From: a virus
Strand: one strand, 5' to 3'
Virus record (IMG/VR): IMGVR_UViG_3300043811_000163
Span: 88,534-113,473 of that record
Length of the DNA stretch: 24,940 nucleotides
Position 1 is the first letter of the stretch, and each line of letters opens with the position of its first letter. A program made the translations under genes and the position numbers. Below are positions 5,273-19,380 of the stretch, piece after piece. Under the pieces are notes generated by a model. The model was not told where the DNA came from and made no database searches. It saw nothing but the letters and a program-made list of their open reading frames with translations.

Positions 5273-5454
5273 GCAAGCGTATCCGGCCCGTCCGGTTCGA
5301 GCTCGTACTGACGCGAGACGAACGCAAGCAGCTCGACCTCGTGGCCGACGATCTCGACATGAGCGCGTCGGACGTGCTCCGACGAGCCTTCAAGGAATTT
5401 CAGTTGCGGTACAAGACAACGAAACAACAGGAGACAGATCATGCCGTTCGGTAA
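5269..5454 (+). CDS. ribbon-helix-helix (CopG-like) DNA-binding protein
   Basis: VRFELVLTRDERKQLDLVADDLDMSASDVLRRAF fits the RHH beta-helix-helix pattern; GTG overlaps the upstream stop. Confidence 0.7.
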   Translation: MSKRIRPVRFELVLTRDERKQLDLVADDLDMSASDVLRRAFKEFQLRYKTTKQQETDHAVR

Positions 5455-6286
5455 GAAGAAGACAGAAGGAAACATCAACTACAACCAGTCGAACATCTCG
5501 ACGCTCGCGGCGGACGCGCTCAAGAATCGGCGCAATGTGAGGGTGAGGCTCGCTGTGAGGCTCACCTTTACCACACCGATCCTGATGCAACGGTGGACCA
5601 CAAAAGCGATCCGGCAAATGCTCGGAAACATGGTAGGAATGCCTCAGCCGAGGATGAGCAAGGATCTCACTGCTGACTTTGAGGACAGCTGGTATCGAAA
5701 CCTCCACGGGGAGCCTGTGATCCCCTGCAGGATCATCAAGGCGGCCATTGTGAGCGCCGGTGGTCCCGTGGTCGGTGGGGTCGTGAGCAAGGCCGATCTG
5801 AAGCGCACGCTTCGAGTGGTCGGGTTCACTGCACCGTTGAAGTTCAAGGGCGAGAAGGAGATGTCGATCAAGATCGTGCGCAACGACAACGGCAAGCCCG
5901 ACGTGCGATCTCGGGCTCAGTTTCCGATCGGGACCACCTGTGAGGTGGTACTCGAATTCGGATTCCCGTTGACGCCCGATGGCATCGTCGCGGCGCTTGA
6001 GGGCGCAGGTACAGCAGTCGGGATCGGAGAGTTCCGACCAGAGAGCGGCGGAGAGCTTGGTTGCTTCACGGTCGAGATTCTTCCGAGCGACGCGAAAACG
6101 ATCGATCGCATTCTCCGAGCGACTTCGGTACTCGAAGACGAATTTCGAATTCCGACTGAAATGCTCAAGGCATTTGCGCAGCTGCCGGACTCGACGCTGC
6201 CGGATCCGGCAAAGAAGGTCCGATCGGCGGTGCGCCGGCAAGCCACGGAGCGCGCGCGCGCGAACGGTGCGCACGACGTCTCGTAG
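5441..6286 (+). CDS. stand-alone Cas7/RAMP-like RNA-binding protein (Vipr-like)
   Basis: N-terminal strand VRLTFTTPILMQ, IPxxxIKAAI motif, RxRAQF, and C-terminal Gly-rich loop AGTAVGIGEFRPESGGELGCFTV typical of RAMP folds; AGGAG RBS; no other cas genes in the window. Confidence 0.75.
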   Translation: MPFGKKKTEGNINYNQSNISTLAADALKNRRNVRVRLAVRLTFTTPILMQRWTTKAIRQMLGNMVGMPQPRMSKDLTADFEDSWYRNLHGEPVIPCRIIKAAIVSAGGPVVGGVVSKADLKRTLRVVGFTAPLKFKGEKEMSIKIVRNDNGKPDVRSRAQFPIGTTCEVVLEFGFPLTPDGIVAALEGAGTAVGIGEFRPESGGELGCFTVEILPSDAKTIDRILRATSVLEDEFRIPTEMLKAFAQLPDSTLPDPAKKVRSAVRRQATERARANGAHDVS

Positions 6287-6337
6287 AATGGAAGACCGCA
6301 GCGCGTTTTCTCATCCGGCGCGCTGCGGTCTCGGCAT

Positions 6338-7266
6338 GGCAGGCACGGACAGCAGTTCCGGAGCGGATAGGCAGGTGAGCAGGGGAACGGTAACGATAGA
6401 CTTCCATCGTACCGGAGCACAATGACAAGGCAGGCACGGACAGGCATGGCTCCCAAGAGCTCGGACCGCATCGACAAGGCAGGCACGGCACATAGAGTAC
6501 CGGCGTGTACCGGCCCGCAAGATACCGGCACAGGCACGGAGCGTCACGGACGGACAAGGCAGGCGTGGATGGGACACGCGGGGCGAGAGTGGAGAGTAGT
6601 GGATTGCCGAGACTTGGCAGGCGGGGAATGGAAGTGAAAGACGCATCCCGCAGCGTCAAGGTGCCATCGGAGCGGATCTTTATGGCAGGCATCGATTGGC
6701 GAGGAAATTCGAGGCGTGTCCGCGCACGACACGATTCGACACGGCAGGCCCGGAAGCACTGAGCGTGGAATGGATGGGATCGGATGGACGAGGCAGGCTG
6801 TACTAGGTCCGGTGTCCAGCGGATCGCAATCGGAATGACAAGGCAGGCAACGCATGGAAGTCATGGGACCGGAAGTGCCTCGGATGGGAGCGGAGCAGGA
6901 GTCGGCAAGGACAGACACGGCAGGCAGAGCACGGCGATAATGGGCCCGACATGGATTGGATGGGGCGGAATCGAGTCCAAAGACACGGCAGGCGCGGATG
7001 GCAGCGCGGGGAACGGACCGTAATCCAATTGACCGACTGGGAACGACACGGCAGGCAAGGAACGTATTGCAGAGCTATGCAACGTAACGGAATGGCAGGC
7101 TACGCGTGGTGCGCAGTGAGTCGGACAGTACGGACATGGCAGGCGTCGATAGTCACGCACCGGACTCGAATGTCCCGAACCGGACCGCATCGACAAGGCA
7201 AGGCAGGCACGGGCAGATGTGGCCGAGTCGGCAGGCTCGGCTACACTGCGATTTGCGAAAGGCAGG
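6338..7266 (+). repeat. non-coding pentamer-phased array, candidate guide RNA array
   Basis: 18 GGCAGG at 6338, 6370, 6429, 6478, 6558, 6616, 6684, 6743, 6792, 6842, 6919, 6987, 7050, 7094, 7138, 7202, 7230, 7261; many spacings are 4+5n (44, 44, 49, 49, 59, 59, 64); pentamers mostly start with G. Confidence 0.88.
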
Positions 7267-9014: not shown

Positions 9015-9152
9015 ATGAAAAGCAATCTGCAATGGTTTCTGCGGTGTCCCTTGTGGGCGACATGCTGGTTTTTGACCGGTCGGCCATGGTCGCACTGGTT
9101 CAATTTCTGGGGTGATCCTGGGAGCGGACCTTGCCCTACGTGCGGCAAATGA
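9015..9152 (+). CDS. small Trp/Cys-rich protein (45 aa, below ORF-track cutoff)
   Basis: AGGAG RBS, ATG 9015, MKSNLQWFLRC...CPTCGK; ATGA overlap with the next gene. Confidence 0.5.
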   Translation: MKSNLQWFLRCPLWATCWFLTGRPWSHWFNFWGDPGSGPCPTCGK

Positions 9153-9397
9153 ACGCGACCGTCCAAGGTGGCTGCGTCTTTTGCGTCGTCGAGGTCAGTG
9201 TACCTCCGCAAATCACTCGAGACGAGTTCATGATGCTCTACGGCTATCGCGTGTGCGCCGTACATCAAGCGACCAATTTCATGCCGTTCTGCCCGAGGCA
9301 CGACACCATGATCAAGGAGATCATGCAGCGACTCAAGGAACGCGGAGCCGAACTCGTTGCGGCCAACGATACGGGACAGGGTACGACTCCGTCATGA
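9149..9397 (+). CDS. hypothetical protein
   Basis: ATGA overlaps at both ends; CVFC and CPRH motifs. Confidence 0.55.
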   Translation: MNATVQGGCVFCVVEVSVPPQITRDEFMMLYGYRVCAVHQATNFMPFCPRHDTMIKEIMQRLKERGAELVAANDTGQGTTPS

Positions 9398-10896
9398 GCA
9401 CGGGCGGCTTTCTCGGCATGCGATTCGATTCGGCCACGCAGATGCAGATGGACCCGAAAGTCGAGGTCGAATTTCTGCGCGCGAGGCTCAAGGAAATGGA
9501 AGCCGTCTTCCAAATGGCCCAACAGAAGCCGCAGCGCCGCGCGATCGTGCTCGAGGTGAGGCAAGACAAGACGACGATCGCGATCGGTCCGCACGTCGAA
9601 GAGGTGGCCACACCGACTCGGATCCCGGATCTCGGATGCGGCGACATCGTGCACATTCTGCCCGACAGCGAAGGCATTCTCGATCGCATCGAGGACTCGC
9701 CGTTGACGGGGCCCATCATGCGTGTGGTACGAAGGATCGACGATCGCTACATCGAGGCCGAGGGACGAAGCGGCGTTCGCGTGATTTCGCTCGCCGGCAA
9801 GCACGACCCGCAAGAAGGGGATCGCGTCATCCTCGATGGGGCCGCGCAGATCTGCGTTCGCATCGTGGACCGCGCCCACGCCGTCAAGGTCGATGCGCGA
9901 GCCATCGAGACCGGAGTGACCTGGGACGACATCGGGGGCCAGGACGAGGCCAAGAAAGCGCTGCGCGAGGCCATCGAGGGCGTCGTGCTCGATGCGGACA
10001 GGTACAAGCGGTACCGCAAGCGCATGCCGAAGGGCGCGCTCTTGGTGGGACCGCCAGGCTGCGGCAAATCGCTTTTCGCGAAGGCAGCAGCGACCGCGAT
10101 TGCGGAGCTGCACGGCAAAGCCTCGGCCGCGACCGGGTTCCAGCACGTCAAGGGCCCCGAGATCCTGCAGAAGTTCGTCGGGGAATCCGAGCAGGCCGTG
10201 CGCGATCTCTTCGAGACGGCAAGAGAGCACAAGAAGCGTCACGGCTATCCGAGCATCATCTGCCTGGACGAAGCCGACGCGCTGCTTGCCGCCAGGGGTC
10301 GCGCGAGGATGGAAGGCATGGAGAAAACGATCGTGCCGGCTTTCCTGACCGAGATGGACGGGATTGAGGACTCGGGCGCGTTCGTTCTTTTGCTCACGAA
10401 TCGGCCGGACATTCTGGACTCGGCTGTGGTCCGCGAAAAGCGATGCGATCTCAAGATCCACGTGGGACGGCCGGACAAGAAACAGGCCGCGGAGATCTTG
10501 CGGCTGCATCTGAAAGACGTGCCGATCTCGATCGACCTCGACGATGAAGACGACCGGCTCGCGGTGGGCGCGGGCGTAGCGTCCGACGAGCTCTTCTCTC
10601 CGCGTCACGGGATCTACGTCGTGCGCACCCGCAGCGCGCGCGCCGACAAGCGACTGAACCTCTCGCATTTCGTCTCGGGGGCCATGTGCGAAGGCTTGGT
10701 CGAGAAGGCGAAAGAGCAGGCCATCCGACGAGAACGCGAGACCGGCAAGGAATCGGGCATCACGTCGGACGATCTGGCGAAAGCCGCGGACCTTCTCTGC
10801 AATGAGCACCGCATCACGGATCATCCAATGGAGCTCGACGAGATCGCGCGCGAGTTCAAGGAAGACCTCAAATCGATCGACCGGGTGAAGCCGTGA
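9394..10896 (+). CDS. ARC/Mpa-like AAA+ ATPase
   Basis: coiled coil and OB-like N-region; VTWDDIGG, GPPGCGKS, KGPEILQKFVGESE, CLDEAD, TIVPAFLTEMDG, TNRPDILD and SGAM motifs parallel proteasomal ARC/Mpa. Confidence 0.85.
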   Translation: MSTGGFLGMRFDSATQMQMDPKVEVEFLRARLKEMEAVFQMAQQKPQRRAIVLEVRQDKTTIAIGPHVEEVATPTRIPDLGCGDIVHILPDSEGILDRIEDSPLTGPIMRVVRRIDDRYIEAEGRSGVRVISLAGKHDPQEGDRVILDGAAQICVRIVDRAHAVKVDARAIETGVTWDDIGGQDEAKKALREAIEGVVLDADRYKRYRKRMPKGALLVGPPGCGKSLFAKAAATAIAELHGKASAATGFQHVKGPEILQKFVGESEQAVRDLFETAREHKKRHGYPSIICLDEADALLAARGRARMEGMEKTIVPAFLTEMDGIEDSGAFVLLLTNRPDILDSAVVREKRCDLKIHVGRPDKKQAAEILRLHLKDVPISIDLDDEDDRLAVGAGVASDELFSPRHGIYVVRTRSARADKRLNLSHFVSGAMCEGLVEKAKEQAIRRERETGKESGITSDDLAKAADLLCNEHRITDHPMELDEIAREFKEDLKSIDRVKP

Positions 10897-11833: not shown

Positions 11834-12234
11834 TGGATCGGGTGAGCATGGAGGAAACTTTTCGCCGGAACCAGCACGAGGCGTTTATGCGGTCTTTGCC
11901 TGACAGCGTTCGAGCGAGCGCCGAAGAAACGTATCGAATACACGGCGAGTTCATCCGTCAGATCACGATCGCTGAGACCGCGACGACGCCCAAAGAAGCG
12001 CTGGAAGCGGCGCGGTGGATCGCGGGACACGTGACCGAGGTAGCCTACCAAATGTGCATGGTGCGCGGATGGGAACGAAGCTGGCTGGAACGCAATCCGC
12101 CGCTACAGTCCGTACGACTATCGGATCTAACGGTAGACGCCCGCGAACATTTCGCTGGCGTGCCGATCCCGCAAGCCGCAGCGCCGGCACCACCGAACAC
12201 CGCGAACGGGCCGAAGAAGGGAATCGATCGGTGA
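11833..12234 (+). CDS. hypothetical protein
   Basis: TAATG overlap. Confidence 0.6.
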   Translation: MDRVSMEETFRRNQHEAFMRSLPDSVRASAEETYRIHGEFIRQITIAETATTPKEALEAARWIAGHVTEVAYQMCMVRGWERSWLERNPPLQSVRLSDLTVDAREHFAGVPIPQAAAPAPPNTANGPKKGIDR

Positions 12235-12376
12235 TCGTCCAGCACGCTCCGGATTGCGTAGGCACGCAGTGCGGTCCCGACGTAGAATTCACATGCGTGG
12301 GCCACGTCGCAAGGACGGCCTGTCAAGTACCGGCAGCTTGCTGGAGAATGGACGTCTGGCTGAGGCAACGAAAGTC

Positions 12377-12404
12377 TTGACCCGGCATCGGACCCTGCTA
12401 CGTT
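12377..12404 (+). promoter_or_regulatory. sigma70-type promoter of the tRNA region
   Basis: TTGACC (12377-12382), 16 bp, TGc-TACGTT extended -10 (12399-12404). Confidence 0.55.
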
Positions 12405-12417
12405 CACCTCGTCAGCC

Positions 12418-12549
12418 ATGAGAACGATCGTCCTCAAGCGCGAAACAGCCCAGCGGAAATGGTCCGCGGCGTATTCGTGCGTCTTTGGGACCATCGATAC
12501 GCATGCGTCAGCCCTCCCCGCGAGCAATCCAGTGGAGGGCAGTATGTAG
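12418..12549 (+). CDS. putative leader peptide (43 aa, all 20 amino acids)
   Basis: MRTIVLKRETAQRKWSAAYSCVFGTIDTHASALPASNPVEGSM*; stop abuts the antiterminator arm. Confidence 0.7.
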   Translation: MRTIVLKRETAQRKWSAAYSCVFGTIDTHASALPASNPVEGSM

Positions 12550-12617
12550 GGACGGCGCGTAGAGAGACTTCCTGAAGCGCCGTCCCGAAACTCGAGACCG
12601 GCGCTTTTCGCATTTCT
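12549..12617 (+). terminator. attenuator: competing antiterminator and intrinsic terminator
   Basis: GGGACGGCGC (12549-12558) is the perfect complement of GCGCCGTCCC (12577-12586); alternatively AAGCGCCG (12575-12582) pairs CGGCGCTT (12599-12606) with a T-rich tail. Confidence 0.7.
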
Positions 12618-12695
12618 GGGGCTCGAAAGAGCATGGTGCTCAAGCGGACTGTAACCCCGCGGCTTCGGCGAGCTGTTCGATTCAGCCGGGCCCCA
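12618..12695 (+). tRNA. tRNA-Tyr(GTA)
   Basis: GGGGCTC/GGGCCCC acceptor, loop CTGTAAC, TTCGATT T-loop. Confidence 0.7.
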
Positions 12696-12763
12696 CTGGA
12701 GAGAGACGATGGAACGCAGACTCAAACGCAAGCGCGCGCCGAGCAAGCCGGCGCAGAAATCGA

Positions 12764-12836
12764 GGGCCCGAAGCTCAATGGGATGAGCAGCGGATTTTTA
12801 TCCCGCGCGACGTCGGTTCGAATCCGACCGGGCTCA
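12764..12836 (+). tRNA. tRNA-Lys(TTT)
   Basis: GGGCCCG/CGGGCTC, loop TTTTTAT, GGTTCGAATCC. Confidence 0.8.
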
Positions 12837-12843
12837 CGACTAC

Positions 12844-12914
12844 GAATCCGTAGTTCAACGGCAGAACGGTCGGCCCTTACCCGATTCATGAGCGTTCGAT
12901 TCGCTCCGGATTCA
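12844..12914 (+). tRNA. tRNA-Lys(CTT)
   Basis: GAATCCG/CGGATTC, loop CCCTTAC. Confidence 0.8.
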
Positions 12915-12915
12915 C

Positions 12916-12986
12916 TGGCGCTTCGTCCAACGGTAGGACAGCGGTTTCTGACACCGTCAATCAGCGTTCGATTCGCTGAGCGCCAA
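12916..12986 (+). tRNA. tRNA-Gln(CTG)
   Basis: TGGCGCT/AGCGCCA, loop TTCTGAC. Confidence 0.85.
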
Positions 12987-13123
12987 CCGCGGCATCCGTT
13001 TCGGTGCCACGATCCTTGACAACCCCGAGCGATGCACTCGGACCGAACGAGCATGACGGCGACCCGAACGGGCGCGGCGGTCTCCTCGTGTGACGCGGCG
13101 CGGGGTAGTTGACCGCGTCTTTT

Positions 13124-13194
13124 TCCGGTGGCGCCTAATGGTGGGCACTCGGTTGTTGCCCGAGACTAAAGGAGTTCGATTCTCTTCGCCGGAG
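13124..13194 (+). tRNA. tRNA-Asn(GTT)
   Basis: TCCGGTG/CGCCGGA-G, loop TTGTTGC. Confidence 0.8.
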
Positions 13195-13210
13195 CGGATA
13201 CAATGTAGCG

Positions 13211-13603
13211 ATGAAGAACGGTCCGTACGAGCTAGTGAAAGCGCCTGCGGAATACCCTGGCTTCAAGTACCGCGGCAGGTACGTGTACGAGCATCATCTC
13301 GTATGGTGGCAGAACACGGGCGAGGTAGTTCCGACCGACGCAGACTACCTGATCCACCACAAGAATCACGATCGAAGGGACAACGCGTTCTCGAATCTCG
13401 AGAAAAAGCAACGCGGTGCTCATACGCGAGAACACATTCTTGAATCGAGAGCGGCCAAGACAGTGGTCGTTCAGTGTGGCTGGTGCAGCCGCGACGTCGT
13501 GAAGTTTGAGCGTGTCGTGCGTCGCCAACAGAAACGAGGTCAGAGAGTATTTTTCTGTTGCGCTTCACACGGGACCAAGTATCAGTTCAACGGTCCGAGA
13601 TAA
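13211..13603 (+). CDS. HNH homing-type endonuclease
   Basis: YVYEHHLVW...IHHKNHDRRDNAFSNLE; C-terminal CGWC...FCC. Confidence 0.85.
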   Translation: MKNGPYELVKAPAEYPGFKYRGRYVYEHHLVWWQNTGEVVPTDADYLIHHKNHDRRDNAFSNLEKKQRGAHTREHILESRAAKTVVVQCGWCSRDVVKFERVVRRQQKRGQRVFFCCASHGTKYQFNGPR

Positions 13604-13672
13604 GCTGGATCGCGTCCGGGACCAACGCTGTTTCGTACTCAGCGCAGGGGAGTCCGACTCTCCCATCCAGCT
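13604..13672 (+). tRNA. tRNA-Thr(CGT)-like, degenerate
   Basis: GCTGGAT/ATCCAGC acceptor, loop TTCGTAC, weak D arm, TCCGACT T-loop. Confidence 0.55.
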
Positions 13673-13717
13673 CTGACCCATGCCCGCCCACGTGGCGAGC
13701 CGAAAAGGAGAACGAAA

Positions 13718-15361
13718 ATGCGATACGCACAGCATTTCAACCCGTACTCGACGCCGCAGAGTGAATCGGCGAAGCCGGGTCAAGTCGAAAACTCTGCCGG
13801 CGGCTACGTGTTCGCGGTCGACAAGTGGACGCAGCTCGATCGGTTTCTCATCCTCGGATGCGAGGGCAACACGTACTACGCGAGCGAGTACGAGATGACG
13901 CGCGACAACGCGAAGAACGTGCTCGCGTGCATCGACGAAGACGGAGCTCGCGCGGTGGCTCGCATCGTCGAAATCAGCCACGCGGGACGAGCCCCGAAGA
14001 ACGATGCTGCAGTATTTGCACTGGCGCTCGCTGCATCCGCAGAGAAGCCGGAGACGCGGGCCGCTGCGCTCGCGGCCCTGCCGAAGGTCTGCAGGATCGG
14101 CACGCATCTCTTTCAGTTCGTCGATGCGGTGCAAGGCTTCCGCGGATGGGGGCCCGGTCTCTGCAAAGCGATCGGCAAGTGGTACACGGATCGATCGCCG
14201 GCCTCGCTCGCGAACCAAGTGCTCAAGTACCAATCGCGCGAGAAGTGGTCGCACAAGGACGTGCTTCGACTCTCGCACCCGTCGGTCTCGAGTCTGGAGC
14301 ACGCGGCCATCTTCGAATGGGTTCGGGCAGGCATGTCGGGCTTCGAGGCGCGCGAGGTCGCTCGAAAGAGCGCTGGACGCGTGGACAAGTACGAGCCGGC
14401 GAATCGGGAGGCGCTTCCGAAGCTGCTCTCGGCATACGAAGAGATGAAGGCGGCGAAGTTCACCAAGGACGTCGTCAAGCTGATCGTCGATCACGGCTTC
14501 ACGCGCGAGATGGTGCCGACCCAGCACTTGAATTCGCCGGAAGTCTGGGAAGCGATGCTCATCGACATGCCGATGACGGCGATGATCCGCAATCTCGGCA
14601 AGATGAGCTCGATCGGAGTCATCAAGCCGCTGTCGAATGCGGCCATGAAGGTGGCGGCGTCCCTCGGAGATCGAGACGCACTGAAGAAGGCGCGCGTTCA
14701 CCCGATCGCGCTGCTCTCGGCGCTCAAGGTCTACGAGCAGGGTCACGGTGAAAAAGGCAAGCTCTCGTGGACGGCCGAACGGAGCGTCGTCGATGCGCTC
14801 AACGAAGCCTTCTATCTCGCCTTCGACCACCTCGAACCGACGGGCAAAAACTGGCTCATCGCGGTCGACATCTCCGGCTCGATGGCCGCGGGAAACATCG
14901 CGGGCATGCCGGGGCTCACTCCGCGTGAGGCCGCAGCGGCCATGGCGATGGTCACGGCGCGAACCGAGAAGAACTGGCACGCGATCGGCTTCACGCAGCG
15001 GGTCGTGCCGATCACGATCTCGCCGAAGCAGCGTCTCGACGACGTCGTGCGAGCCATCAGCCAGAACGTCGGAGAGCAGACCGACGCGGCGCAGCCGATG
15101 CTGTATGCGGCGCGCGAGAAGCTGGGCGTAGACGCATTCGCGCTCTACACCGACAACGAGACCTGGGCCGGCGCGATTCATCCGTTTCAGGCTCTTCAGC
15201 AGTACCGGCAGAAGCTGGGTCGCCACCAGTCCAAGTGCATGGCGGTCGCCATGACCGCGACGCGATTCAGTATCGCGGATCCAAGCGATGCGGGGATGCT
15301 CGACGTCGTAGGTTTTGACGCGGCGACGCCTCAAATCATGGCCGACTTCGCGAGGGCTTGA
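13718..15361 (+). CDS. rsr: Ro60/TROVE-domain RNA-binding protein
   Basis: QVENSAGGYVF, LDRFLILG, KYQSREKWSHKDVLRLSHP, MPMTAMIRNLGKM, vWA MIDAS DISGSM, TDNET, LDVVGFD; AAGGAG RBS. Confidence 0.95.
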   Translation: MRYAQHFNPYSTPQSESAKPGQVENSAGGYVFAVDKWTQLDRFLILGCEGNTYYASEYEMTRDNAKNVLACIDEDGARAVARIVEISHAGRAPKNDAAVFALALAASAEKPETRAAALAALPKVCRIGTHLFQFVDAVQGFRGWGPGLCKAIGKWYTDRSPASLANQVLKYQSREKWSHKDVLRLSHPSVSSLEHAAIFEWVRAGMSGFEAREVARKSAGRVDKYEPANREALPKLLSAYEEMKAAKFTKDVVKLIVDHGFTREMVPTQHLNSPEVWEAMLIDMPMTAMIRNLGKMSSIGVIKPLSNAAMKVAASLGDRDALKKARVHPIALLSALKVYEQGHGEKGKLSWTAERSVVDALNEAFYLAFDHLEPTGKNWLIAVDISGSMAAGNIAGMPGLTPREAAAAMAMVTARTEKNWHAIGFTQRVVPITISPKQRLDDVVRAISQNVGEQTDAAQPMLYAAREKLGVDAFALYTDNETWAGAIHPFQALQQYRQKLGRHQSKCMAVAMTATRFSIADPSDAGMLDVVGFDAATPQIMADFARA

Positions 15362-15396
15362 CCCGCGCGAGTCGATATGCGATAGAGAGTGTCGGA

Positions 15397-15455
15397 CGCC
15401 AGCCGATTGGCGAGGGTTACCTTGTACGTGCCCCTCGACACACACCATGCCGGCG
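15397..15455 (+). ncRNA. Y-RNA-like element A
   Basis: GCCGATTGG-CGAGGG-TTAC...CCCTCG-N7-CCATG, closing stem CGCCAGC/GCCGGCG; directly after Ro60. Confidence 0.55.
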
Positions 15456-15457
15456 TT

Positions 15458-15526
15458 TGAACCGAATGGAACAGCGTTACCCCCATTTAGGAATCCACGC
15501 TGATCCGATACCATGTCCGTGTTTCA
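15458..15526 (+). ncRNA. Y-RNA-like element B
   Basis: ACCGAATGG-AA-CAGCG-TTAC...CGCTG-N8-CCATG; same layout as A with a different but paired stem. Confidence 0.55.
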
Positions 15527-15529
15527 TTT

Positions 15530-15664
15530 GCCGTCCGTAGCTCAGTTGGTAGAGCGGCAGAGGCGAAAGCCTTTCGTTCTTCAATCCCATGCTCGCGCAA
15601 GCGAGCCGCATGCGGAACGTTACCATGGATCTGTAGGTCGGTGGTTCGAATCCACCCGGCGGCA
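15530..15664 (+). ncRNA. tRNA-like RNA whose anticodon arm is replaced by a Y-RNA-like domain
   Basis: canonical D arm TAGCTCAGTTGGTAGAGC, T arm GGTGGTTCGAATCCACC, acceptor GCCG(T)CCG/CGGCGGC; insert carries CGTTC-N7-CCATG then GCCGCATGC-GGAACG-TTAC. Confidence 0.7.
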
Positions 15665-15669
15665 CTCTT

Positions 15670-15745
15670 GTCCCATTCGTCTAGTGGTCCAGGACCCGAG
15701 CCTCTCGAGCTCGCGACAAGCGTTCGATTCGCTTATGGGACGCCA
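15670..15745 (+). tRNA. tRNA-Glu(CTC)
   Basis: GTCCCAT/ATGGGAC-G-CCA, loop CTCTCGA. Confidence 0.88.
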
Positions 15746-15746
15746 C

Positions 15747-15816
15747 GGCCCGTAACTGATGGTTTGGTGGCCTGCCCTTCAAGCAGGCAGCGGGAGTTCG
15801 ATTCTCCCACGGGTCA
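15747..15816 (+). tRNA. tRNA-Glu(TTC)
   Basis: GGCCCGT/ACGGGTC, loop CCTTCAA, degenerate D arm. Confidence 0.7.
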
Positions 15817-15956
15817 CCCCGCGATTGCTGGTGCCGGGATGTGAAGGTTGCGATGAGGAAGCCCGAGTTTTCTGATCCACGCGTGCACGGCGGATCGGTG
15901 CGGGAAGAGTCGTCGAGGACGCGCATCTCTCCGGTTCGATTCCGCGACGGGATTCC

Positions 15957-16032
15957 GCTGAGCGAGCAAGTCTGGTGATTGCGCCGGTCTGAAAAGCCGG
16001 ACAACTCCGTTCGATTCGGAGGCTCAGCACCA
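15957..16032 (+). tRNA. tRNA-Phe(GAA)
   Basis: GCTGAGC/GCTCAGC-A-CCA, loop CTGAAAA. Confidence 0.85.
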
Positions 16033-16101
16033 GGGTGTAGCGTAAAGGCTGCGCGCTCCGTTCGGGCCGGAGAGGAGGCGGATCGTTCCCGCCCACCCTG
16101 A
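16031..16101 (+). tRNA. tRNA-Pro(CGG)
   Basis: CAGGGTG/CACCCTG-A, loop TTCGGGC; overlaps the CCA of tRNA-Phe by 2 nt. Confidence 0.75.
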
Positions 16102-16106
16102 CTCAT

Positions 16107-16179
16107 GGTGTCCATGGTGTAGCGGTTGCACGCGTGATTGTGGCTCACGAAGAGACGAGTTCAACTCTCGCTGGACACC
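16107..16179 (+). tRNA. tRNA-His(GTG)
   Basis: G-1 plus GTGTCCA/TGGACAC-C73, loop TTGTGGC. Confidence 0.85.
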
Positions 16180-16184
16180 CAAAT

Positions 16185-16256
16185 CCCCTCGGCTCGCCGG
16201 ATGCGAGCGGCGCTTTCCTACAGCGCGCGGGCCGTGTTCGACTCACGGCGAGGGGA
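16185..16256 (+). tRNA. tRNA-Arg(CCT)
   Basis: CCCCTCG/CGAGGGG, loop TTCCTAC. Confidence 0.75.
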
Positions 16257-16262
16257 CGAATG

Positions 16263-16337
16263 GGCTCGTGACGCGATCAGCATCGCGACTGCACTGTCGA
16301 TGCAGCGAAATGGGGGCAGCACCCATACGAGCCGCCA
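16263..16337 (+). tRNA. tRNA-Asp(GTC)
   Basis: GGCTCGT/ACGAGCC-G-CCA, loop CTGTCGA, atypical T-loop GGCAGCA. Confidence 0.7.
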
Positions 16338-16338
16338 C

Positions 16339-16407
16339 GGGTTTCAGGTCATGGTGACCAATCGGATTCCAACACCGAAGGACAGCGTTCGATTCGCTGG
16401 AGACCCG
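16339..16407 (+). tRNA. tRNA-Trp(CCA)
   Basis: GGGTTTC/GAGACCC-G, loop TTCCAAC. Confidence 0.7.
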
Positions 16408-16411
16408 CTAC

Positions 16412-16481
16412 GGGGGTGTGCGACGGGCTCGCGGCCGATCCTTGCAAGATCGTGCATCTGGTTTCGATACCAGCACCTCCA
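16412..16481 (+). tRNA. tRNA-Ala(TGC)
   Basis: GGGGGTG/CACCTCC-A with the G3:U70 Ala identity pair, loop CTTGCAA. Confidence 0.8.
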
Positions 16482-16485
16482 CTTT

Positions 16486-16553
16486 GCCCATGTGCCATGG
16501 TGGCGGCCGTCCTCGGTAAGGACGTCTCGCGAGTTCGATCCTCGACGTGGGCT
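16486..16553 (+). tRNA. tRNA-Thr(GGT)
   Basis: GCCCATG/CGTGGGC, loop TCGGTAA. Confidence 0.7.
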
Positions 16554-16559
16554 CTATTC

Positions 16560-16630
16560 GCCGGTCGAAGCATCATGGTGATGCACTCGGCTTGTATCCG
16601 AGAGGTGCGGTTCGATTCCGACGACCGGCT
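16560..16630 (+). tRNA. tRNA-Thr(TGT)
   Basis: GCCGGTC/GACCGGC, loop CTTGTAT. Confidence 0.75.
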
Positions 16631-16635
16631 CTATT

Positions 16636-16706
16636 GCGACCATCGTCCAACGGTAAGACCGCTGACTTCCATTCAGCAGATGCCGATTCGATTTCGGCTG
16701 GTCGCT
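16636..16706 (+). tRNA. tRNA-Gly(TCC)
   Basis: GCGACCA/TGGTCGC-T, loop CTTCCAT. Confidence 0.82.
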
Positions 16707-16711
16707 CAAGT

Positions 16712-16785
16712 GCGGGTGTAGCTCGAAGGTCGAGCACGTGGTTGCCATCCACGAGGCGTGGGTCCGATTCCCATCATCCGCTCCA
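16712..16785 (+). tRNA. tRNA-Gly(GCC)
   Basis: GCGGGTG/CATCCGC-T-CCA, loop TTGCCAT. Confidence 0.88.
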
Positions 16786-16786
16786 T

Positions 16787-16862
16787 GACGAGGTAGCCAA
16801 GCAAGAAAGGCAGCACGTTGCAACCGTGCCATGCGTCGGTGCAATTCCGTCCCTCGTCTCCA
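16787..16862 (+). tRNA. tRNA-Cys(GCA)
   Basis: GACGAGG/CCTCGTC-T-CCA, loop TTGCAAC. Confidence 0.85.
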
Positions 16863-16987
16863 TGATGCAGCGGCAACGTGCGTGAGTCCAAAGGATCGTG
16901 AAAATGGCCGATCACGCGCACGCCAAGCGTTTGCATCGAGTCGAAAGACTCCCGCCCGCCTCGGGGCGCGGTGACTGCCGAGGCATT

Positions 16988-17058
16988 GCTTCCGTCTCGG
17001 CGGACCCGAGCTGTCGGTTTCTATCCGACGTGTGCAGTTTCGACTACTGCCGGAAGCA
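16988..17058 (+). tRNA. tRNA-Arg(TCT)
   Basis: GCTTCCG/CGGAAGC, loop TTTCTAT. Confidence 0.72.
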
Positions 17059-17061
17059 CTT

Positions 17062-17133
17062 CTGCTCGTCGTGGCGGATTCCACGCTCTCGAGTGCGAAT
17101 CGAGATGTCGCAGTTCAACTCTGCGCGAGCAGG
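17062..17133 (+). tRNA. tRNA-Arg(GCG)
   Basis: CTGCTCG/CGAGCAG, loop GTGCGAA. Confidence 0.7.
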
Positions 17134-17137
17134 CTAC

Positions 17138-17208
17138 GCCTTCGTCCATGCGGATCATGGCCCGACGCTTCGAACGTTGGTGACTCGGCTCGACTCCGAG
17201 CGAAGGTG
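17138..17208 (+). tRNA. tRNA-Arg(TCG)
   Basis: GCCTTCG/CGAAGGT, loop CTTCGAA. Confidence 0.7.
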
Positions 17209-17209
17209 C

Positions 17210-17280
17210 CGCGGGGCAGCCGGGGACGGCAGCTCGGTCTCATAAGCCAAGCCAGCCACGTTCGACTCGTGGGCCCGCAA
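17210..17280 (+). tRNA. tRNA-Met(CAT), initiator-like
   Basis: CGCGGG.../...CCCGCA-A with C1:A72 mismatch, loop CTCATAA. Confidence 0.65.
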
Positions 17281-17281
17281 C

Positions 17282-17350
17282 GCCGATGATCCTCGGAGGA
17301 GGCGCCGTTTCATATGCGGCAGCAAGAGCGTTCGATTCGCTCCATCGGCA
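17282..17350 (+). tRNA. tRNA-Met(CAT), elongator or Ile2
   Basis: GCCGATG/CATCGGC, loop TTCATAT. Confidence 0.7.
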
Positions 17351-17351
17351 C

Positions 17352-17419
17352 TGGAGGTTACCTGGCGGGAGCAGCTCTCCTACAAAGAGCAGCGACGCGT
17401 TCGATTCGCGTACCTCCAA
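17352..17419 (+). tRNA. tRNA-Val(TAC)
   Basis: TGGAGGT/ACCTCCA, loop CCTACAA, reduced D arm. Confidence 0.65.
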
Positions 17420-17420
17420 C

Positions 17421-17501
17421 CGGACGTCACCTAGGCCGGACGGGATCCGGCGCCCGTCTTATGAGCGGGTCGGCTTGGTGGTTCGACTCCACGACGTCCG
17501 A
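17421..17501 (+). tRNA. tRNA-Ile(TAT)-like
   Basis: CGGACGT/ACGTCCG, loop CTTATGA, extra nucleotides before the D arm. Confidence 0.6.
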
Positions 17502-17509
17502 CGAATAGA

Positions 17510-17581
17510 GCGAGACACGCCATCTGGTGAAGGCACCGGCCCGACGCGCCGGACAGGAGAGTTCGATCCTCTCGTCTCGCA
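17510..17581 (+). tRNA. tRNA-Val(GAC)
   Basis: GCGAGAC/GTCTCGC, loop CCGACGC. Confidence 0.75.
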
Positions 17582-17585
17582 CAAC

Positions 17586-17657
17586 GGGCGTAGATGGTCT
17601 GGTCGACCTTGGAACCCTGATAAGGATCCTGGCAGGATTCGATTTCCTGTACGCCCA
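17586..17657 (+). tRNA. tRNA-Ile(GAT)
   Basis: GGGCGTA/TACGCCC, loop CTGATAA. Confidence 0.75.
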
Positions 17658-17681
17658 CCCCGTGCTATAGAGAGCAGCGCT

Positions 17682-18209
17682 ATGGAGCCGCAGGTTTTGG
17701 TCTTGAACGTCTGGATGCAGCCGCACGCCATTTACACGTGGCAGGACGCGATCGTTGCGCTCTACAAGGGCAACGTCGACGTGCTCGAGGAGTACGAGGC
17801 GACCGTTTCATCCCCGTCGGTCACGCTGCAGATCCCGGCCGTCATCAAGCTGCGCAAGACGCTGTCAACGCACAAGAAGGGCCTGAAATTCAGCCGAATG
17901 AACGTGCTGACTCGCGACGGTCAACGCTGCTGCTACTGCGGTCAGCGCGGCTCTCTTCGCGATCTCAATTACGATCACGTTCTTCCGCGATCACGCGGTG
18001 GGACCACGACTTGGTTGAATATCGTGACGGCGCACCGCGGGTGCAATACACGGAAGGGCAATAAGACCCCTGCCGAAGCGGGGCTCAAGATGCACTTTCA
18101 GCCGCATGTTCCGCGGAGTCTTCCGATGGCGAGGCCGTTTCTCATCGATCTCGAGAAGGCGCCGCCGCAGTGGCTGCCGTACTTGACGCAGAGTGCGGAG
18201 ACGGCATGA
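17682..18209 (+). CDS. HNH endonuclease (McrA-like)
   Basis: VLVLN...RDGQRCCYCG...DHVLPRSRGG.TTWLNIV...CNTRKGNKTP; ATG 17682 chosen because the upstream part of the tracked ORF is tRNA. Confidence 0.88.
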   Translation: MEPQVLVLNVWMQPHAIYTWQDAIVALYKGNVDVLEEYEATVSSPSVTLQIPAVIKLRKTLSTHKKGLKFSRMNVLTRDGQRCCYCGQRGSLRDLNYDHVLPRSRGGTTTWLNIVTAHRGCNTRKGNKTPAEAGLKMHFQPHVPRSLPMARPFLIDLEKAPPQWLPYLTQSAETA

Positions 18210-18511
18210 ACTGGGCGACGCCACACATCGAATCGCTCAAGCGCGGCACGATCGTGCAGTTTCGGCCGAAGGGAGATTCGATGTCCGGCCGGATCGAGAA
18301 CGGCCAGCTCGTGACCGTGCATCCTGTGGACGATGCGACACTGATCGAAGTCGGCGACATCGTCCTCGTGACGATCGGCGGGTGGACCTACGTGCATCTC
18401 GTCAAGGCGATCAATGGGCCGCTCTATCAAATCGGCAACAATCGAGGTCGCATCAATGGGTGGGCGCATCGAGAAAAGATTCATGGCAAGGTCATCAAGG
18501 TCGAGCCGTGA
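18206..18511 (+). CDS. S24/S26-family peptidase-like protein
   Basis: GDSMSGRI motif, VGDIVL, HLVK; ATGA overlap with the HNH gene. Confidence 0.7.
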   Translation: MNWATPHIESLKRGTIVQFRPKGDSMSGRIENGQLVTVHPVDDATLIEVGDIVLVTIGGWTYVHLVKAINGPLYQIGNNRGRINGWAHREKIHGKVIKVEP

Positions 18512-18514
18512 ACT

Positions 18515-18597
18515 GGAGAGCGAACCGCGCGGGGCGCGGGCCCGGTTGGAAGCCGGTGCGGACCGCAAGGTCTGGTTTTCGAGTAACCCGCTCTCCG
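18515..18597 (+). tRNA. tRNA-Ser(GGA)
   Basis: GGAGAGC/GCTCTCC-G, loop TTGGAAG, long variable arm. Confidence 0.8.
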
Positions 18598-18598
18598 C

Positions 18599-18681
18599 GG
18601 AGAGAAAACCGATCAGGGATCGGCGCGGCTTTGAATACCGAGGGGCGAGCAATCGCTGAGGGTCGGGACCTCTTCTCTCCT
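18599..18681 (+). tRNA. tRNA-Ser(TGA)
   Basis: GGAGAGA/TCTCTCC, loop TTTGAAT, long variable arm. Confidence 0.7.
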
Positions 18682-18687
18682 CGAGAC

Positions 18688-18770
18688 GGAAGGTGAACTC
18701 GCCAGGGGCGAGAGCGGCTTCGAATACCGCATGGCGCTTCGGCGCTGAGATTCGAGTTCTCCGCCTTCCA
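18688..18770 (+). tRNA. tRNA-Ser(CGA)
   Basis: GGAAGGT/GCCTTCC, loop TTCGAAT, long variable arm. Confidence 0.75.
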
Positions 18771-18771
18771 C

Positions 18772-18857
18772 GGAAGCAAAACAGGTCAGGGTGCCTGGAC
18801 CGCCTGCTAAGCGGCTCGCACGCGTGAGCGTGTCTGTTTCGATTACAGTTGCTTCCG
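18772..18857 (+). tRNA. tRNA-Ser(GCT)
   Basis: GGAAGCA/TGCTTCC-G, loop CTGCTAA, long variable arm. Confidence 0.8.
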
Positions 18858-18869
18858 CCCAAAATCCTC

Positions 18870-18898
18870 TTGCACTCGCTCGCGCCGCGCGCTAGGCT
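18870..18898 (+). promoter_or_regulatory. sigma70-type promoter of the Leu/Gln tRNA block
   Basis: TTGCAC (18870-18875), 17 bp, TAGGCT (18893-18898). Confidence 0.65.
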
Positions 18899-18905
18899 CT
18901 CCTCC

Positions 18906-18959
18906 GTGAGCCGACTTCTGTTGCTCCAACGCCTGCAGCTTCTAGGGCCTTTAGCCTAA
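18906..18959 (+). CDS. putative leaderless Leu/Gln-rich leader peptide (17 aa)
   Basis: GTG AGC CGA CTT CTG TTG CTC CAA CGC CTG CAG CTT CTA GGG CCT TTA GCC TAA; GTG lies at the expected +1. Confidence 0.75.
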   Translation: MSRLLLLQRLQLLGPLA

Positions 18960-18973
18960 GAAGCTCGATCTGC

Positions 18974-19049
18974 GCGCTGGTAGACCAACTCGGAAGGAGT
19001 CGATCGCCTCAAGAGCGATTCAGTGCGGGTTCGAATCCCGCCCAGCGCA
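18974..19049 (+). tRNA. tRNA-Leu(CAA), short variable arm
   Basis: GCGCTGG/CCAGCGC-A, loop CTCAAGA. Confidence 0.82.
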
Positions 19050-19050
19050 C

Positions 19051-19122
19051 TCGGGGATCGATCTAACGGCAAGACATCCGGCTTTGACCCGGACAATAGC
19101 GGTTCGAATCCGCTTCCCCGAA
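19051..19122 (+). tRNA. tRNA-Gln(TTG)
   Basis: TCGGGGA/TCCCCGA, loop CTTTGAC. Confidence 0.88.
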
Positions 19123-19123
19123 C

Positions 19124-19205
19124 GCCGGCATGGTGGAAATGGCATACCCCTGCTTGAGGTGCAGGGCCCCGCAAGGGGTTGCAGGTTCGATTCCTGTTGC
19201 CGGTA
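19124..19205 (+). tRNA. tRNA-Leu(GAG)
   Basis: GCCGGCA/TGCCGGT-A, loop TTGAGGT, long variable arm. Confidence 0.85.
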
Positions 19206-19211
19206 CGAGAT

Positions 19212-19297
19212 GCTCACCTGGCGAAATAGCAACCGCGCTGCGTTCAGACCGCAGTGGGCGCAAGCCCTTGAGGGTGCAATTCCCTCGGTGAGTACCA
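19212..19297 (+). tRNA. tRNA-Leu(CAG)
   Basis: GCTCACC/GGTGAGT-A-CCA, loop TTCAGAC, long variable arm. Confidence 0.85.
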
Positions 19298-19304
19298 GTT
19301 CAAC

Positions 19305-19380
19305 GCAGCACTCGCTCAACAGGCAGAAGCCCCGCCCTAAACGCGGTCAAGTCCCGGTTCGACTCCGGGGTGCTGCACCA
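19305..19380 (+). tRNA. tRNA-Leu(TAA), short variable arm
   Basis: GCAGCAC/GTGCTGC-A-CCA, loop CCTAAAC. Confidence 0.75.

Follow-up and report, generated by a model that had tools for sequence, protein, structure and literature searches.

How is a long tRNA array carried by a phage switched on? Phage tRNAs rescue infection from tRNA-cutting defences (PMC12409363) and long bacterial tRNA arrays aid survival of translational stress (PMC8421152), as described in the parts of these sources available to us. Within the literature searched, insofar as its text was accessible, the switch-on of a tRNA array is reported in one case, which is repressor-controlled. At the locus analysed here a short leader ORF and a terminator hairpin precede the array. 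Attenuation of some kind at 12377-12617 is very probable, and a ribosome-controlled attenuator gauging tRNA supply is the reading that we prefer, with a probability of about three in four.

The window and its tRNA array

The window, i.e., the whole 24,940-nt stretch of DNA analysed, makes up the final 24.9 kb of a virus record that measures 113,473 bases and has direct terminal repeats. It carries genes for a terminase, head morphogenesis, an AAA ATPase, Ro60 and two HNH proteins, and 30 tRNA genes. With 30 tRNAs in 6.8 kb (12618-19380), it contains a long tRNA array as defined in the available part of PMC4758250 (at least 20 tRNAs, at least two per kb). A lower threshold adds one Ala and one Ser tRNA, giving the 32 tRNAs used below for codon matching. 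The features found downstream of the main leader are the following:

12618..13195, + strand: first tRNA block, with Tyr (start 12618), Lys(ttt), Lys(ctt), Gln(ctg) and Asn
13011..13024, + strand: motif in the Gln-Asn spacer, conserved in 6/6 aligned spacers
13211..13603, + strand: HNH_3 endonuclease gene (family match)
13591..13679, + strand: candidate Y RNA-like element before Ro60 (closed stem, two inner hairpins, z -0.74; weak)
13718..15361, + strand: Ro60/Rsr gene (TROVE and vWA)
15531..18861, + strand: main tRNA block, containing an HNH gene (17682-18209) and an S24-like gene (ORF 18170-18511)

The spacer motif presumably resembles the boxA antitermination site of rRNA operons, and the fold at 13591..13679, which has no match in Rfam, is what we take to be a weak likeness of a Y RNA. 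A GC-rich hairpin followed by five T lies in 12990-13124, ending at 13124 just before tRNA-Asn, and might act as a stem for processing or as another terminator. Right after Ro60 (15359-15540) there is a promoter-like -35 box, and two short ORFs (15389-15460 and 15466-15540) precede the second tRNA block. The first member of this block (15531-15663) is a tRNA-like gene with a structured insertion of about 60 nt in the anticodon arm, which is found by Rfam and missed by ARAGORN.

Elsewhere in the window, the phage AAA ATPase (9112-10896) has the proteasome ATPase TIGR03689 as its nearest model, below cut-off, and a 281-aa ORF at 5441-6286 without Pfam or NCBIfam match is followed on its 3' side by some 900 bases of DNA that is repetitive and strongly skewed (6300-7200). 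Outside the window, at L097:1209-1854 (= G000:C1:77208-77853), a promoter precedes a 6-codon ORF with a TGA stop, a longer +1 frame without evident start, and three tRNA-like genes (Phe, Ser, Cys). The longer frame, which has no NCBIfam match, presumably resembles a peptidyl-tRNA hydrolase-like protein, and a frameshift at the stop of the 6-codon ORF is possible.

Since the best chromosomal matches of the array HNH gene come mostly from Polyangia and other Myxococcota, the host of the phage probably belongs to this group. The module controlling the tRNA array was probably acquired from a Polyangia host.

The main leader and its terminator

The original prediction described a promoter, an ORF of 43 codons, 34 of them distinct, that covers all 20 amino acids, a 10-nt arm, a hairpin and the first tRNA at 12618. 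All of these are present:

12377..12404, + strand: predicted sigma-70-type promoter (-35 TTGACC, 16 nt, TG-extended -10 TACGTT; consensus match only)
12418-12549, + strand: main leader ORF (43 codons, all 20 amino acids)
12549..12558, + strand: antiterminator arm, starting at the G of the TAG stop and exact reverse complement of 12577-12586
12574-12607, + strand: terminator hairpin (shared arm 12577-12586) with an interrupted T tail at 12605-12617, based on folding and covariation

The promoter boxes are in place, but a stricter promoter scan did not report 12377-12404; the extended-TG pattern of these boxes has six matches in the 113-kb genome, the main-leader promoter among them. In the viral relatives described below, similar promoters sit 4-13 nt before the leaders. 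The start of the main leader lies 13 nt past the -10 box, with no evident Shine-Dalgarno sequence before it.

The leader peptide matches no Pfam or NCBIfam family. Its 34 distinct sense codons include five different codons for Ser, three for Thr, three for Arg and both codons for Lys and for Glu, a count that is unusual compared with genes but ordinary compared with random DNA (P 0.06-0.13) and with the same peptide (z 0.3-1.1). The full set of 20 amino acids is seen in 0.3-1.5% of random 43-codon frames without a stop, in 34 windows out of 2858 drawn from nine proteins of the window, and in 0.23% of 42-residue windows in 95 predicted phage genes. The completeness of this leader (chance 0.2-1.5%, depending on the null) is suggestive, and taken alone it is too weak after a genome scan.

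The antiterminator (-25.5 kcal/mol) and the terminator (12574-12607, -18.6 kcal/mol) share one arm and their helices are mutually exclusive; in neither case was any of 200 shuffles equally stable. As a terminator, the hairpin is stable but its tail is interrupted (four T, CGCA, TTTCT) and it is absent from the list of a consensus terminator scanner. Interrupted tails of this kind also end ordinary Polyangia genes.

In the folding model the free RNA adopts the antiterminator (1.0) and hardly ever the terminator (0.01). The antiterminator helix keeps a probability of 1.0 with a ribosome at codons 2-38 and drops to 0.0 at codons 43-44. For three footprint sizes, the predicted probability of the terminator is at most 0.06 with the ribosome at any of codons 1-37, at most 0.02 at codon 38, and 0.88-0.91 at codons 43-44. 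Folding of both conformers, which had been proposed as a check, therefore gives models in which the position of the ribosome picks the structure, and the polarity originally claimed, with termination when the ribosome is on the stop codon, finds computational support. The sole elongator Met of the main leader is codon 43, and because a ribosome stalled there already favours termination, the modelled sensing zone (codons 2-38) comprises 19 amino acids. The proposal that loss of almost any tRNA is the signal would hold for these 19 but not for elongator Met, which lies outside the zone. An ATG followed by a stop codon ends three related leaders (window 12544-12549; L098:7492-7497; L184:6395-6400). 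A DNA pattern taken from the end of the main leader matched six stretches, one being the L098 contig; the other five gave no hit with the array-head detectors.

A switch driven by a protein or RNA factor (a phage antiterminator, a repressor or T-box-like tRNA binding) instead of the ribosome might be suggested by the boxA-like motif further downstream. The one array studied experimentally has indeed a repressor at promoter repeats, according to the available parts of PMC8421152 and PMC10272220. Rfam detects neither a T-box nor any other family at 12200-12617, and a factor would leave both the stop-linked arm and the amino-acid breadth unexplained, so that we regard this explanation as most improbable.

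Related array heads

Relatives were gathered using the two HNH genes as bait, and arrays headed by the tRNA order of the window or close variants were kept (29 heads). The array-head detector missed the window itself in its first version and was then relaxed, hence its detections are tuned; the anchors of L231, L312 and the first of two hairpins in L293 were chosen by eye. Twenty-six heads possess a leader, one (L083, a Tyr-first array with a promoter) lacks it, and two (L095 and L297) are truncated, the hairpin being visible in both. The leader layout heads 26 of the 27 related arrays with enough upstream DNA, 11 of them viral (window included) and 15 in bins of bacterial genomes whose titles name Myxococcota, Deltaproteobacteria or Proteobacteria; Sorangium sp. 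So ce388 (L283) is a cultured carrier. Since the same element heads chromosomal arrays of Myxococcota, it is not a phage-specific counter-defence.

In the 26 heads an open frame of at least 44 codons ends 21-52 nt ahead of a related hairpin. Covarying arms had been named in advance as something to look for in homologous leaders, and they are found on both sides of the switch. Two-sided changes occur in eight of the 11 pairs of the terminator hairpin among the 26 relatives (0/500 shuffles). They also occur at four of the seven pairs of an antiterminator helix obtained from a sequence-only alignment of 12 of the 26 members, with 77% paired cells and a register that, in this 12-member alignment, beats every slid register. 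From these sequence comparisons, the element is real and conserved.

Nascent folds sequester the 5' arm of the terminator in 26/26 members (0.77 versus 0.62 in shuffled sequences, above the shuffle in 24/26), and the partners of the arm lie at -26..+15 of the stop. The duplex with the stop region has a Stouffer Z of -8.6 over the 26 members, although only 12 of them fall individually below z -1.64, and pairing is stronger between an arm and its own stop region (-21.5 kcal/mol) than when the arm is combined with the stop regions of other members (-17.8 kcal/mol). These P values overstate independence because the members share descent. At equilibrium and without ribosome, the terminator dominates in 17 of 25 members (L312 unscored), so most relatives would need co-transcriptional kinetics: their switch shows up in nascent folds and, for the most part, not at equilibrium.

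Tandem terminator hairpins are found ahead of the first tRNA at L293:7524-8137, with an ORF before each, and in L302 upstream of 7503. Six of the 15 chromosomal leaders (L264, L265, L266, L267, L287 and L293) carry Pro before the stop. A C-terminal Pro could slow termination and, in these six leaders, hold the ribosome on the arm.

Out-of-sample matches of the terminator

Of 151 genomes from the class to which Sorangium belongs, 64 have matches to a model of the terminator alone (E <=0.05). Many of these matches are ordinary terminators, the same hairpin family ending ordinary genes. Among the best 30 loci, 17 have a tRNA downstream, i.e., 16 after removal of one duplicate (L348 duplicates L282; L350 is L283), and 13 do not. 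Of these 13, two have no stop in range and L354 was set apart, leaving 10 controls for the duplex; the breadth controls are the eight tRNA-less matches with frames of at least 40 codons, L354 among them.

The stop-linked duplex has a Z of -8.35 in the 16 tRNA-associated matches, 15 of which are sequestered, versus -0.31 in the 10 controls (Mann-Whitney P 0.013). A ribosome mask frees the arm in control terminators too, and the freeing is therefore partly trivial. Breadth is 17.1 amino-acid types (n=16, L357 and L365 included) versus 16.0 in the eight control frames (P 0.07), and 17.5 when L357 and L365 are left out (n=14). As the duplex is clear out of sample and breadth only marginally exceeds that of controls, the switch geometry is general in this element family, and extreme breadth is found mainly in short viral leaders. 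On the minus strand of L354 (about 1642-1469, a Polyangia genome), a Trp-Trp leader and a terminator of the same family precede an anthranilate synthase gene (trpE). Neither fold test showed a switch in this leader and hence it is not a passed positive control.

These matches bear on whether the peptide might be a functional small protein, or the frame incidental, with the hairpins acting as a constitutive leaky terminator or a processing signal. GC-rich DNA often contains long open frames, ordinary genes too end in hairpins of this family, and a short NP motif recurs near the C-terminus of several leaders. Against this, the leader peptides are of quite different lengths and sequences, and none has a family match. 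The complementary arm stays with the stop in array heads, which it does not do in control terminators, and it prefers its own stop region by the energies given above. We consider this explanation quite improbable.

Amino-acid breadth and codon choice

Breadth was counted as the number of amino-acid types in the last 40 codons before the stop, a measure blind to start choice. The 11 viral frames have a mean of 18.9 types versus 15.06 in genes of the same loci, a value reached in none of 200000 gene draws with the window in or out, and the short viral leaders hold 17-20 types. The retention of amino-acid completeness in homologous leaders, also proposed originally as a check, is thus borne out in the viral set. 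The 15 chromosomal frames, whose leaders are longer, show a modest diversity (mean 16.2 versus 14.6 in genes, P 0.001). Compared with nucleotide shuffles, the breadth of the 26 frames has a Z of 9.1. Common descent of the members makes these breadth figures, too, look more independent than they are.

Codon choice follows another pattern. No codon-anticodon matching beyond GC bias was detected (Z 0.83 with wobble, -2.1 exact), nor was the spread of synonymous codons in the leaders above chance. Isoacceptor matching was rejected on these grounds, and a gauge of individual isoacceptors is not supported. As codon choice is untuned to anticodons and synonymous spread does not exceed chance, selection, if any, acts at the level of amino acids; breadth appears to be selected at that level, making the leader a probe for the amino acids served by its own array. 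With wobble allowed, the main leader offers codons for 27 of the 32 window tRNAs, and the two leaders together for 30, Pro(cgg) and Arg(cct) being left uncovered by both.

Leaders are also present in other phages. Among 80 viral loci baited with Ro60, most with few or no tRNAs, leaders were found in L034 and L054, the latter an unrelated phage with 37 tRNAs and Ro60 whose 31-codon leader holds all 20 amino acids. A tRNA-pattern scan of 51 loci gave unrelated leaders in L106/L107/L145, L112 and L146. The arrangement promoter-leader-terminator before tRNAs is seen in the unrelated phages L106, L107 and L145 (tRNA-Asn), L112:2051-2143, L146 (tRNA-Asp) and L034:4654-4761, and the leaders of these six loci contain 14-19 amino-acid types.

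The leucine/glutamine leader

A second leader precedes the last tRNAs of the window array:

18870..18898, + strand: second predicted promoter (TTGCAC, 17 nt, TAGGCT)
18906..18959, + strand: Leu/Gln leader ORF (17 codons, GTG start 7 nt past the -10 box)
18974..19380, + strand: Leu/Gln tRNA unit, Leu(caa), Gln(ttg), Leu(gag), Leu(cag), Leu(taa)

This leader contains eight Leu, covering all six Leu codons, plus both Gln codons, and ends 14 nt before Leu(caa). Orthologues are present in L098, L155 and L184; together the Leu-rich leaders have 24 Leu in 62 codons, each includes a CAA codon, and no intrinsic terminator was found after them. In L098 and L184 the Leu unit is on the opposite strand behind its own Leu-rich leader, and Leu is the only amino acid missing from their main leaders (38 and 35 codons, respectively). 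The joint chance of both Leu-less leaders is about 0.006, assuming independence and in a post hoc test. The main leader of the window retains two Leu codons despite its separate Leu unit, which is found further downstream and has the same orientation. A Leu leader of its own, together with the main leaders of L098 and L184 that lack Leu, ties the sensor to the tRNAs that it would gate, and the supply of Leu and Gln(CAA) is likely watched by the second, Leu-rich leader. At L098/L153 (about 13007-13915) an ORF that we take to be transposase-like lies between the Leu/Gln tRNAs of the minus-strand unit and parts three Leu tRNAs from the leader.

Regarding mechanism, folding of the free RNA of the Leu unit predicts, in three of four loci, a pairing with the acceptor strand of the first tRNA, and an early ribosome restores the cloverleaf in these models. 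This pairing is not predicted in the window at equilibrium, and the duplexes between Leu leader and tRNA are not significant versus shuffles (P 0.07-0.76). Control by pairing onto the tRNA-Leu acceptor strand is, as a model, speculative.

Proposed mechanism

According to the preferred reading, the main leader would be translated from a very short 5' end. A ribosome keeping pace with RNA polymerase would mask the arm on arrival at the stop; the terminator could then form and halt transcription ahead of tRNA-Tyr. A shortage of almost any charged tRNA (19 amino acids) would instead stall the ribosome, the antiterminator would stay in place and the array would be transcribed. The antiterminator would also stay intact, with readthrough into the array, if the leader were left untranslated. 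The tRNAs of the array, once made, would end the stall. What we infer in this scheme is that the leader is translated, that termination takes place in vivo, which signals induce the array, and that Ro60 is co-transcribed with it; given the hairpin with five T ending at 13124 and the promoter-like -35 box behind Ro60, Ro60 and the later tRNAs may or may not belong to one transcript. Among sequencing runs, none of RNA was listed for 12300-15500, which speaks neither for nor against transcription there.

The same switch could respond to general translation stress (antibiotics, blocked initiation, ribosome damage), breadth being a side effect and not a tRNA gauge. This reading and that of tRNA supply are compatible with each other. 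The modelled switch opens on any failure to reach the stop, isoacceptor matching is absent, and the chromosomal leaders are longer and only mildly diverse. In the parts of the sources available, toiL and whiB7 respond to many ribosome drugs (PMC12121999; bioRxiv 10.1101/2023.06.02.543512) and the Anabaena array is induced by chloramphenicol (PMC8421152). However, the 17-20 types of the short viral leaders far exceed genes and shuffles, Leu, a common residue, alone is missing exactly where the Leu tRNAs sit elsewhere (with the post hoc chance given above), and dedicated Leu-rich leaders exist. General stress without a gauge is therefore unlikely, and a gauge of tRNA supply remains preferred. 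The fullest version, a two-tier circuit in which an all-amino-acid leader fitted to its own array and a terminator-less Leu/Gln leader with a new acceptor-pairing route switch on a near-complete set of backup tRNAs and Ro60 in response to starvation or to cleavage of host tRNAs by defence nucleases, is put forward tentatively and is less likely than not.

If the attenuator operates as proposed, a protein-free leader would allow a mobile element to gauge tRNA supply in any host, the idea of compensation for defence could be tested directly with a 240-nt reporter, and the element could serve as a compact sensor for tRNA-targeting nucleases.

Comparison with known systems

Classical trp-type leaders terminate when untranslated, whereas the free RNA of the window is predicted to read through. 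The parallel with trp/his attenuation drawn originally holds for the geometry of the attenuator but not for its logic, since readthrough upon lack of translation is that of whiB7. In the available part of PMC4007540, the trp/his/leu/ilv attenuators share with the window a uORF, competing antiterminator and terminator, and a decision by ribosome position; leader peptides of Deinococcus deserti are there predicted to be leaderless. In the trp/his/leu/ilv leaders one to three amino acids occur in runs, and the genes under control serve biosynthesis or encode synthetases. The main leader of the window, spread over 20 amino acids, has no run of codons for a single one, while the Leu leader (18906-18959) has one.

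The closest system in the text available is the whiB7/wblC uORF of Actinobacteria, described in a bioRxiv paper that cites Lee et al. 2022. In M. smegmatis the whiB7 uORF contains 19 amino acids, and which shortage it detects depends on its composition; full translation leads to an intrinsic terminator, and stalling or loss of the start to readthrough (bioRxiv 10.1101/2023.06.02.543512, available part). Both systems share a variable uORF of broad composition and readthrough when translation fails, which for the phage element is model-based. However, whiB7 gates a transcription factor gene, whereas the phage element would gate tRNAs plus RNA-repair genes in phages and Myxococcota: downstream of the main leader there are tRNAs, HNH and Ro60, not whiB7, and the chromosomal relatives are Myxococcota, not Actinobacteria. 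The phage element also has a second, Leu/Gln leader, unlike whiB7 as described there. The likeness is one of logic.

The E. coli toiL uORF is multipurpose, stalling anywhere relieving repression, but it acts on the ribosome-binding site and on Rho termination of a toxin-antitoxin mRNA, while the window has an intrinsic terminator before tRNAs (PMC12121999, available part). The trn operon (L-array) of Anabaena is long, normally silent and induced by translational stress including chloramphenicol. As in the window, it is accompanied by HNH and RNA-repair genes in its regulon, but its control relies on promoter repeats and the repressor TrcR (PMC8421152 and PMC10272220, available parts). The terms "attenuat" and "leader" have no match in the main text of PMC8421152, nor do attenuat, leader and terminator in the available text of the array survey PMC4758250. 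Leader-peptide control of tRNA arrays did not appear among the titles and abstract openings listed by a full-text literature search covering few subscription papers and no supplements. The logic of attenuation is already known; what is new here is its output, a tRNA array, and a second leader that divides the amino acids with the first.
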